IMG/VR virus record: IMGVR_UViG_3300036760_000945
Coordinates: 1-64,000 of that record
Origin: a virus
Length of the DNA: 64,000 nt
Direction: 5' to 3' (one strand)
Every line of letters starts with the position of its first letter. Within the stretch, counting starts at the first letter, position 1. This document shows, in pieces, positions 18,664 through 21,132 of this stretch. The position numbers and the translations under genes were made by a program. The notes beneath the pieces were generated by a model, which was not told where the DNA came from, searched no databases, and worked only from the letters and a program-made list of their open reading frames with translations.

Positions 18664-19068
18664 TTACATAACCTGTGCTGCTGGACCCCGGCTGCGCCCC
18701 GCGGGCGTATATGGTTTATAATATTCAGCCTGTAGTAATATCTGAGTAATTCTACGAAAGTTTGTGGCTTCTCTATACTCTGGCATTACCAATACTTGAG
18801 TTATACGCCGCTCATTGGTAGGCATTGTATATTCAGCCTCAACCAGAACTTGAGTAACATATCGAGGAGGCGTATACTCAACCATTACACCAATGGTGGT
18901 GGTTCTTGCCATATGAGGAGGCAAGTATTCAACTATTGCTCCGATATCGGTAGTTCTGGCCTTGTGAACGGGCGCAAATTCAGCTATTGCTCCGATATTA
19001 GTAGTTCTTATTTTGCGGAGATCAACAAATTCGACTATTTCGCCGATATTGGTAGTTCTTTTTGCCAT
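18664..19068 (-). CDS. virion protein made of seven ~17-aa beta-strand repeats
   Basis: 4x RTTxIGxxxE(F/Y) followed by 3x (V/I)TQ(V/I)LxxxEY. Confidence 0.8.
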   Translation of the reverse strand: MAKRTTNIGEIVEFVDLRKIRTTNIGAIAEFAPVHKARTTDIGAIVEYLPPHMARTTTIGVMVEYTPPRYVTQVLVEAEYTMPTNERRITQVLVMPEYREATNFRRITQILLQAEYYKPYTPAGRSRGPAAQVM

Positions 19069-19071
19069 AAG

Positions 19072-20079
19072 TTAGCTCCGGGTCTTGGGACCAACTTGTA
19101 AGGCATCTAATTCTGCTACTGTCCATGCAAGTCCAGTTTGTGGGTTGACAAGATATTCGGTTCCGAAAATCCGTTTATTGTAAACACTTAACAATTCAAC
19201 ATCCGGACCCGCATACTCAACAGCATGTGTCTTCACCACAAGAGAAATCAGACCCCCCGCTGCAACAGTATCTTTTGCTCGTGCTTCTGCATAAACGCGG
19301 AAAATGGTTACGTTTGCCAGATTACTTGGCGATAAATTATATAAATCTTTTTCATCAACAGTTGCTCCTTCAACATAGGTTGTGTCGCCGTCTGCCGGAA
19401 TATCATCCACAAGCAAGTAATTATCAACCTGATTTGCATCTGAGCCCGTTAATTGAGAAAGATCACCATTGGCGTTTGGCCGCAACAATATAATCCTTCC
19501 GTCCCCACACCAAGAATCATCAACTCCTCCAGCCAAATCATTCAAAGCCAGATCGTCGAAATATTCAGTGGCATTATCTCCAAACATTAAATATACAATA
19601 TCCGCAGATGATGCAGTGAATGTATCTCCAGTGAATGTTACATCCAGCACACCATCAATTCTCACCTCGACTATGCCTCCAACATTTGCTACCCCAATAT
19701 GAATCTCTACTAGATGCCATTCATTTAGTGATATTGGAGTTGTGCCTCTTGCTACTTCTGTTGGATTACCTCCGGCATCAAAAAGGACGATCCCTATACC
19801 AATGCTACCAATAGCATTGATTGAACACATCTTTTCTGTGGGAGTATGTCCAAATGCAAAAATCTCCTGTGCGTTGGATGCGGTATAGTAGGCAAAGCGT
19901 AGATAAAGTTCAGTTAGAGGAGCTATCTGTTTCATTGATGGCGTCTGTCCTAAAGAATTGGCAGACCAACTCACTAAACCTGATCTTATATGGGCTGAGG
20001 ACAGCGAATCACCCACACCGACGTAAGTCCAGAATAGTTCGTCTTGCATTTCAAAACCTTCAGTAAATATTCTAGCCAT
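19072..20079 (-). CDS. tail-associated LamG/concanavalin-like beta-sandwich protein (paralog A)
   Basis: NEWHLVEIH...VEVRIDG...YFDDL; NPQTGLAWTVAELDALQVG. Confidence 0.75.
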   Translation of the reverse strand: MARIFTEGFEMQDELFWTYVGVGDSLSSAHIRSGLVSWSANSLGQTPSMKQIAPLTELYLRFAYYTASNAQEIFAFGHTPTEKMCSINAIGSIGIGIVLFDAGGNPTEVARGTTPISLNEWHLVEIHIGVANVGGIVEVRIDGVLDVTFTGDTFTASSADIVYLMFGDNATEYFDDLALNDLAGGVDDSWCGDGRIILLRPNANGDLSQLTGSDANQVDNYLLVDDIPADGDTTYVEGATVDEKDLYNLSPSNLANVTIFRVYAEARAKDTVAAGGLISLVVKTHAVEYAGPDVELLSVYNKRIFGTEYLVNPQTGLAWTVAELDALQVGPKTRS

Positions 20080-20124
20080 TTTTATACCTCTTTCTTGTAT
20101 AAATTGGGATCATTTTCTCTAAAT

Positions 20125-21132
20125 TCATCGAATTATACATCCGGCCTGGAGTGCGTTCACACGCGCTTCTGTCCAGGCAGCCGAGTCCGCAGGATCTGTT
20201 AAATATTCAGCAGACAAATAGCGGGCATAGGCAAGTGTTAGGGCTTGATCTACGCCCTGTTCGTCCGTTGTGGCGCTGCGCAAGAGTGTAGCGATTTTAT
20301 CTCCGTCCGCTGCTGTTTCAAGTGCATCCACTTCTACCCACACACGAGCAATGGAAGCGCCACTAGGCAGTCCGGCAATGTCGGACAAGAGATAAGTGGA
20401 CTTTTTGTCCACTGTGGACTCGTAAACATAGTCTGTGCTGTTAGCTGGGATTTCATTTACGCAATCCCAAGCGTTGCCGGTACTGGCAATCAAGTCGGCG
20501 TATTCGGCAGCGCCAGTAATAGGTACTAACGCCGCAAGTACACCGCCGTCACCGATCCAAGAATTATCAACAGCGCCAGCAGTATCATTAAAGGCAATAT
20601 CGTCAAAATAAGAGTTGTTACTTCCACTAGGAGCAGTAACAGAACGACAGTAGAATCTGTCCATTGCCGCCTGAGCATTTGTTGCACCAGACCAATCAAG
20701 GACAAGCGTACCATCGAATTTGACCTGGAAGATCCCATTGGGGGCCGCTGCAATTTTGACGTGGACTTCAAATACGTGCCATTCATTCAGGTTCATGGTG
20801 AATAAGGAACTTGTTGCCCTTAATGTAGTACCATCATACATCTCTATACTCGCTACTCCATTTCCAAACGTCTTAGTTCGCAACGATCCGGCCTCACTCG
20901 CACCATTATTCCATTGAAAGAACCGGCAAGCACTCGAAAGGTCCACGCGAAAGGCAAAGCGGATATAAAACTCTGTCATAGAGGTAAGAACTTTCAGCGC
21001 CGAGTGAGCAGAAGAAGCAATTCTATATGAATAATTTCCTGTTCGTCTTGTTGTACTGATAGATACTTCTTCAACACTTGTCAATCTCAACAGATCACCG
21101 CTTTCTGCACCGTCTGTAAATAGTCGAGTCAT
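20125..21132 (-). CDS. tail-associated LamG/concanavalin-like beta-sandwich protein (paralog B)
   Basis: NEWHVFEVH...FQVKFDG...YFDDI; DPADSAAWTEARVNALQAG; colinear with paralog A, both 335 aa. Confidence 0.75.
   Translation of the reverse strand: MTRLFTDGAESGDLLRLTSVEEVSISTTRRTGNYSYRIASSAHSALKVLTSMTEFYIRFAFRVDLSSACRFFQWNNGASEAGSLRTKTFGNGVASIEMYDGTTLRATSSLFTMNLNEWHVFEVHVKIAAAPNGIFQVKFDGTLVLDWSGATNAQAAMDRFYCRSVTAPSGSNNSYFDDIAFNDTAGAVDNSWIGDGGVLAALVPITGAAEYADLIASTGNAWDCVNEIPANSTDYVYESTVDKKSTYLLSDIAGLPSGASIARVWVEVDALETAADGDKIATLLRSATTDEQGVDQALTLAYARYLSAEYLTDPADSAAWTEARVNALQAGCIIR

Follow-up and report, generated by a model that had tools for sequence, protein, structure and literature searches.

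In chaperone-usher pili (Fim, Pap, Caf1), a beta-sandwich is encoded without its last strand, which another polypeptide donates, and the result is a non-covalent, very stable assembly of adhesive subunits. The cellulosome scaffoldin (cohesin-dockerin) is a repeat scaffold that recruits several carbohydrate-active or carbohydrate-binding modules, the type of repeat deciding which. SpyTag arrays and strand 11 of split GFP are engineered split-domain tags analogous to the natural system considered here. This system was found in a 64,000-nucleotide stretch of viral DNA (the window; positions 1 to 64,000 of IMG/VR record IMGVR_UViG_3300036760_000945), which is part of an uncultured virus record of 82,851 bp. 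Three adjacent genes encode two LamG-like paralogs (A and B) and a small protein of seven short repeats, referred to below as the thread protein. The three genes probably form a split adhesin module of the phage tail, in which the strands of the thread protein would complete the C-terminal domains (C-domains) of the paralogs in trans.

The mechanism resembles the known donor-strand principle in what appears to be a new form, as suggested by comparative genomics and one structural model. As in chaperone-usher donor-strand complementation and exchange, a domain lacking its last strand is proposed to receive it from another polypeptide. However, the acceptor here looks like a jelly roll of the carbohydrate-binding module (CBM) type, whereas the pilin is immunoglobulin-like, and the donor is a dedicated protein of 2-8 tandem strands rather than the N-terminal extension of the next subunit. 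The neighbouring genes are those of a phage tail (tape-measure-like, tail fibre), with neither a periplasmic chaperone nor an usher among them. The parts would come together in the cytoplasm, in a phage tail, and the product would be a bundle on a thread instead of a head-to-tail polymer. As fold, donor, compartment and product all differ, the locus is not a member of the chaperone-usher system. No pilins were among the top matches listed in the fold searches with the models of paralog B and of the fused homolog P0106, which gave CBM-type jelly rolls, a fold outside those listed not being excluded thereby. In the cellulosome scaffoldin the unit of the scaffold is a folded cohesin domain; here it would be one 11-residue strand that joins the fold of its client. 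Literature searches returned no description of such a strand thread in phages.

The anatomy of the locus proposed in the first-pass annotation was confirmed, both for the open reading frames (ORFs) and for the positions of the repeats. Three co-directional minus-strand ORFs encode two tandem paralogs of 335 residues ending at ALQxG and, directly downstream, a 134-residue protein with seven repeats. Paralogs A and B are 33% identical (E 4e-42), and their C-terminal ends are ...AWTEARVNALQAGCIIR and ...AWTVAELDALQVGPKTRS, respectively. Both match phrog_2448, a family whose function is not described, over the whole profile (paralog A, E 2.6e-22, profile positions 34-334 of 335; paralog B, E 9.1e-25, positions 65-334 of 335). 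Neither phrog_2448 nor phrog_6368 has a recorded function or partner, and a link to a strand-repeat partner was not annotated in any source found. The 269 homologs of the paralogs are mostly 320-343 residues long, and nearly all terminate in ...DALQxGxKxR. The paralogs had been described as truncated; they do end at ALQxG without a cis strand, but 335 residues is the family norm, both as the length of the phrog_2448 profile and among the 269 homologs. Truncated or pseudogene-like copies were therefore ruled out, and the whole clade would be natively split rather than composed of degraded genes.

The AlphaFold2 model of paralog B alone was confident, with a predicted local distance difference test score (pLDDT) of 89.8. 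Residues 1 to about 185 make up the N-terminal domain (N-domain), a jelly roll of the ConA/LamG-like kind. With probability 1.0, Foldseek matched it to 2zzj, a PL20 glucuronan lyase (template modelling score, TM, by target 0.55), and also to TtX122 domains, calreticulin and the N-subdomain of clostridial neurotoxin binding domains. Taken as a whole, the two-domain architecture has structural matches in many phage proteins, among them one from Achromobacter phage AchV4 annotated as a 'virion structural protein' (TM about 0.75-0.8). Searches of PDB sequences with profiles A1 and A3 gave no hits, and thus no solved structure related by sequence, and scans of viral contigs with single proteins gave no matches. 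The Pfam match to Polysacc_lyase (22.7 bits) was under the cut-off of 29.9, and weak matches to DUF7196, DUF5865 and MBT, also under their cut-offs, were discarded.

The thread protein consists of seven 11-residue units with a period of 17-18. The division of the units into four RTTxIGxxxE[FY] and three xTQ[VI]LxxxEY repeats (the RTT and TQVL classes) agreed with the first-pass annotation. When the protein was compared with itself, 33 identities were counted at offset 17 and 25 at offset 18; 5000 shuffles gave no more than 22 at any offset. In the DNA, a likeness survives between only two to three units (period 51, 77% matches), which indicates that the repeats are old and have been preserved as protein sequence. 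Within one thread protein the repeats are similar at positions 4-6, and between phages they differ there, as would be expected if all repeats of one class fit one partner.

On sequence grounds the thread protein is a member of a real and conserved family. An exhaustive HMMER search of 1.84 billion representatives recovered 52 relatives at E<=1e-3; these had not surfaced in a word-indexed protein search, which gave no match. The usual small protein of this family has 63-73 residues, with three repeats followed by K-P-W...G-R-x-x-G-P-A-x-Q-[VI]-M, and the number of repeats varies from 2 to 8. The thread protein has the tandem R-x-T-x5-V-E-Y units, the G-P-A-x-Q-[VI]-M tail and the position directly after a LamG-like gene by which the family is recognised, and it was the only ORF in the window to match the small-protein profile (E 2.5e-51). 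Its relatives match either residues 69-134 (P0125, a stand-alone protein of 69 residues, 73% identical) or residues 1-67 (P0126, P0133, P0142), so that it looks like two small proteins joined (residues 1-67 and 68-134). No tblastn match was obtained in cultured phages. No significant match was found in Pfam or PHROG, including any known chaperone family, both libraries holding described families only. The ESM Atlas model of the thread protein alone had a pLDDT of 0.49 and a predicted TM score of 0.28, with no confident fold.

In distant homologs the strand is present in cis. The first-pass annotation had stated that related phage domains continue after ALQxG with a final R/CxTQxxxEVxY strand, and this continuation was indeed found in L037, L040, L042, L051, L053, L054 and gp13 of Streptomyces phage Hiyaa. 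These homologs have in common with the window the C-domain and the motif R-x-T-Q-V-x-x-x-V-x-Y after ALQxG, plus the LamG-like N-domain where present, but they carry the strand in the same chain, one per domain, and a separate strand-repeat gene is absent. Of the 51 viral loci (numbered L) retrieved with the family alignment, 10 had the cis motif, always 8-15 residues after ALQxG. One copy of R/C-x-T-Q-V-x-x-x-V-x-Y occurs in L037, L040, L042/L043, L050, L051, L053 and L054, and in L038, L044 and L048 two C-domains are followed by two strands in a single protein (about 4950-6350). In Hiyaa gp13 (L001, 'minor tail protein', MK279841.1) both domains are N-terminal, and the chain continues ...LDSAQIGYRSSVSQTTIRRVTAVWALVEF.... 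The alignment to cis-strand homologs, suggested as a check, bore the idea out: in alignment A4 the cis strands share columns with the first repeat of P0106, and in P0106 and in a second fusion, P0053, repeat 1 follows ALQxG at the distance seen for the cis strand. A profile search detected a small strand-repeat ORF in none of the 10 cis-strand loci.

Some further features of these homologs were recorded. The two strands of L038, L044 and L048 read x-C-T-Q-V-Y-V-x-V-x-x and then I-R-T-T-Q-x-Y-x-K-[VI]-N-Y, in the order domain-domain-strand-strand and not domain-strand-domain-strand. In Hiyaa gp13, past the cis strand and a second ConA-like region, about 20 loosely periodic K-[RT]-R-S-[IL]-G-x-A units (residues ~610-1050) might be a related strand array. 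The gp13 gene lies between the capsid and head-to-tail adaptor genes, despite its annotation as a minor tail protein.

The LamG-like and strand-repeat genes were expected to co-occur, and they did so nearly without exception, whichever partner was used for the search. Every close locus (L004-L034) gave a hit with the small-protein profile, beginning where the last LamG-like gene ends. The reverse search from the small protein gave two new loci, L058 and L059, each with a LamG-like gene directly upstream, and three loci from Anaerolineae metagenome-assembled genomes (MAGs) have the same arrangement of a LamG-like gene followed by a strand-repeat ORF. In P0053 (416 residues) and P0106 a LamG-like protein and four repeats are naturally fused. 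Repeats also occur N-terminally in or inside larger tail proteins (L008, L012, L013, L014, L020, L027, L036, L045, L062), and strand arrays were found joined to unrelated domains (beta-propeller, Dit-C-terminal, F5/8-type-C). One LamG-like gene is usually accompanied by three repeats, and in L023 by seven, which ruled out the simple rule that the number of repeats equals the number of paralogs.

Individual arrangements among these loci were as follows. P0147 has a complete F5/8-type-C domain and then five strands, and P0137 has strands, then a beta-propeller, then the SPP1 Dit C-terminal domain. In L060 (Anaerolinea MAG; 3909-4609), two strand-repeat ORFs flank a fragment of a LamG-like C-terminus, which looks like the remnant of a lost second cassette. 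Seven consecutive LamG-like paralogs are present in L041 (1578-9118), with no recognisable strand-repeat gene behind them.

The two repeat classes could be assigned to the two paralogs by lineage. Paralog A shares 75-77% identity with the LamG-like protein of L030 and 56-64% with its counterparts in L031, L032 and L058; it forms a fully supported clade with these four, each of which is followed by a protein with three RRVTQVL (TQVL) repeats. All other homologs are nearer to paralog B. The closest C-domain to that of paralog B is in P0106 (66%), the fused thread of which matches the N-terminal (RTT) half of the thread protein in the window, and L012, the sister of paralog B in the tree, is followed by RTTNIG-type repeats. 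The C-domain of paralog A is thus a candidate acceptor of TQVL-class strands, and that of paralog B is proposed as the acceptor of RTT-class strands. The correlation of repeat classes with paralogs anticipated from the window alone consequently held across phages in that two classes track two paralog lineages, but the number of repeats does not equal the number of paralogs.

The same comparison suggested how the locus arose. By blastn, the DNA of L030 matched the window at 20165-21143 and 18721-18858 only, and the TQVL-repeat DNA of the window matched the small gene of L030 and of L032. This indicates that paralog B and four RTT repeats were inserted between paralog A and its three-strand partner, giving the nested order A, B, b, a. 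The inserted unit would be a cassette of a LamG-like gene and its own strands.

As a folded proxy for the complex, the natural fusion P0106, which contains a C-domain, four repeats and the tail, was modelled with AlphaFold2. The C-domain had a pLDDT of about 97, and repeat 1 formed a 14-residue strand (173-186) with a pLDDT of 94 and then 84. Repeats 2-4 and the tail had a pLDDT of 41-54 and no secondary structure, and, like the ESM Atlas result, this points to a repeat protein that does not fold confidently by itself, as the first-pass reading would have it. Only two changes were seen by DSSP between this model and that of paralog B alone: isolated bridges at B 257-270 became a continuous 14-residue strand, and B 194-198 became a strand. 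A Foldseek-independent fold search with the P0106 model returned CBM32 (7d2a, 121 of 129 residues aligned), CBM36, CBM4 and related jelly rolls with VIA Z scores of 9.0-9.3 (background 7-8), and the alignments run from residues 28-33 to 183-186, taking in the repeat strand. Repeat 1 therefore appears to fill the position of the last strand of a CBM-like jelly roll in the P0106 model. Strand I, the last one of a canonical jelly roll, runs between strands B and D, which would fit the two segments that changed.

The mechanism that would account for these observations is the following. Each 335-residue protein would combine a ConA/LamG-like N-domain with a CBM-like jelly-roll C-domain that lacks its last beta-strand (strand I), this strand having been moved into a separate gene and multiplied. 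The 134-residue protein would be an otherwise unfolded thread with seven copies of the strand (core R-x-T-x-x-x-x-x-V-E-Y), separated by linkers of 6-7 residues, some with proline. Each repeat would insert into one C-domain and complete its sheet, so that one thread could carry several lectin-like modules. As one domain would use one strand and leave the others free for further copies, three subunits would fit on a three-repeat thread. In the window, the four N-terminal RTT repeats would recruit paralog B and the three C-terminal TQVL repeats paralog A, up to four copies of B and three of A per thread, and the short linkers would force the domains into a tight row. The conserved tail (GPAAQVM) is a possible virion anchor and would then probably fix the assembly to the tail tip. 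Given the sugar-binding types of both domains and the place of the genes at the distal end of the tail block, a multivalent adhesin for the host surface is likely.

Several points weigh against this mechanism. The model of paralog B alone was already confident, which means that AlphaFold2 does not flag the domain as incomplete. Contacts between the repeat and the C-domain were deduced from DSSP and pLDDT only, the alignment behind the P0106 fold held cis forms that may have steered the docking, and the VIA Z of about 9 is only slightly over the usual background. The number of repeats (2-8) follows no simple rule, as illustrated by L023, and no clear strand donor was seen in the distant LamG-like loci L002, L003 and L041.

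Three other explanations were considered, all of them less well supported than the split adhesin. The thread protein could be a small fibrous tail component in its own right, for example a homotrimeric beta-helix or beta-spiral, that adjoins the LamG-like genes only because both belong to a tail-tip module. Regular short beta-strand repeats, proline-containing linkers and a conserved C-terminal tail would all suit a fibre, and an oligomeric fibre cannot show in a monomer model. Against a fibre, the thread protein alone has no confident fold, and in the cis homologs the motif is a single copy right after the C-domain, unable to build a repeat fibre. A fibre is also at odds with the presence of strand-repeat ORFs in every close locus and their absence from the cis-strand loci, with the paired lineages of repeats and LamG-like proteins, and with the fusion of strand arrays to unrelated domains. 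On balance a fibre is unlikely.

Less likely again is a transient assembly chaperone, which would cap the open C-domains in the cytoplasm, be exchanged later for a strand of another virion protein and be absent from the particle. Small genes downstream of fibre genes often encode chaperones, and the docking evidence fits such a role equally well. However, in loci of the L030 type the thread gene is directly followed by a lysis-like gene, and a further strand donor was not seen; the fusions P0053 and P0106 are permanent, and arrays are N-terminal on large tail proteins; and the conserved tail suggests a second, structural contact. Least likely of all is that the repeats bind another repeated target, such as subunits of the tail tube or baseplate, or a structure on the host surface, with the modelled docking merely reflecting the cis homologs in the alignment (which did include them, with contacts taken from DSSP and pLDDT): cis and trans forms share a conserved strand motif, repeat class tracks the LamG-like lineage and not other neighbours, and repeat 1 of P0106 and P0053 stands at the cis-strand spacing from ALQxG.

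The split adhesin may be one instance of a wider device, a generalisation for which the case seems evenly balanced. Phage tails would use a 'poly-donor-strand' thread, an unfolded protein of 2-8 tandem 11-residue strands, each of them supplying a different lectin-like subunit with the jelly-roll strand that it lacks, and the class of strand would pick the paralog. Cassettes of a lectin gene and its cognate strands could be inserted, nested and fused into heteromeric multivalent adhesins, such as the 4 B and 3 A that the 134-residue thread might hold at most, and the same strands would act as N-terminal docking tags on larger tail proteins. If this is true, receptor-binding devices can be assembled in a compact, natural and modular way, with their specificity written in 11-residue tags. 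It would explain the widespread unannotated small ORFs behind phrog_2448-type tail genes and provide an annotation rule for which tail proteins bind one another. It would also bring donor-strand complementation, known from bacterial pili, into virus particles and onto another fold, and protein engineers would gain a natural system of split-domain tags.

The positions of the module and of the genes that follow it are listed in Table 1.

Table 1. Features of the proposed split adhesin locus and its downstream neighbours in the window
Feature	Position	Strand	Description
Paralog A	20125..21132	-	335 residues; N-terminal ConA/LamG-like jelly roll and C-terminal CBM-like domain ending ...NALQAGCIIR
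Paralog A C-domain, residues 188-335	20128..20571	-	Boundary from alignment with paralog B and pLDDT dip in the B model
Paralog B	19072..20079	-	335 residues; two-domain architecture like paralog A
Paralog B C-domain, residues 186-335	19075..19524	-	66% identical to the C-domain of the fusion P0106
Paralog B residues 257-270 (VTIFRVYAEARAKD)	19270..19311	-	Strand predicted to pair with the incoming repeat; DSSP comparison of models
Paralog B/thread junction	19066..19086	-	...CCC GGA GCT AAC TTA TGG...; in frame CGG AGC TAA CTT ATG
Thread protein	18664..19068	-	134 residues; seven strand repeats and conserved C-terminal tail
Thread N-terminal half, residues 1-67	18868..19068	-	Four RTTxIGxxxE[FY] (RTT[NDT]IG...E[FY]) repeats, residues 4-14, 21-31, 38-48, 55-65; P.H(K/M)A linkers
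Three xTQ[VI]LxxxEY ([YR][VI]TQ[VI]L...EY) repeats, residues 70-80, 88-98, 106-116	18721..18861	-	
Thread C-terminal tail YKPYTPAGRSRGPAAQVM	18667..18720	-	Motif K-P-[WY]...G-R-x-x-G-P-A-x-Q-[VI]-M kept across the small-protein family (alignments A3, A5)
Segment absent from L030 and L032	18859..20164	-	Paralog B and four RTT repeats, fused in frame to the TQVL partner
627-residue tail-fibre-like protein	16768..18651	-	phrog_9942 tail fibre, E 4.7e-6
Two small proteins downstream of the tail-fibre-like gene	16324-16743 and 16044-16385	-	

The module lies in a minus-strand tail block with the order 3004-residue tape-measure-like protein (27113-36127), proteins of 149, 1150, 320 and 381 residues, paralog A, paralog B, the 134-residue thread protein, the 627-residue tail-fibre-like protein and two small proteins. 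The tail-fibre-like gene starts 12 nucleotides past the stop of the thread gene, which places both in the same operon. At the junction between paralog B and the thread gene, the TAA stop, a single CTT codon and the thread ATG share one frame, with GGAG about 8 nucleotides 5' of the ATG. Read-through of the stop would thus yield a fusion like P0053 and P0106. In L030 the LamG-like and thread genes are in different frames, and the shared frame in the window may be a coincidence.

The search for the portal protein among cultured phages gave no match. The N-terminus of the tail-fibre protein (18620-18651, minus strand), MAKGTQINVEQV..., has a weak resemblance to a strand unit (T-Q-I) without the V-E-Y end, which is probably due to chance. 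A Hint / PT-HINT domain was detected at residues 2778-2902 of the tape-measure-like protein (E 1e-12), an intein-like or pretoxin-type module close to the C-terminus. An 894-residue ORF on the plus strand (13203-15887) has several InsA-type zinc ribbons at its start (Pfam E 2.8e-12); by eye it also has an intein-like insertion (CYSADTEVLT ... HGNS) within a phosphoesterase-like body, Pfam confirming the zinc ribbons only.

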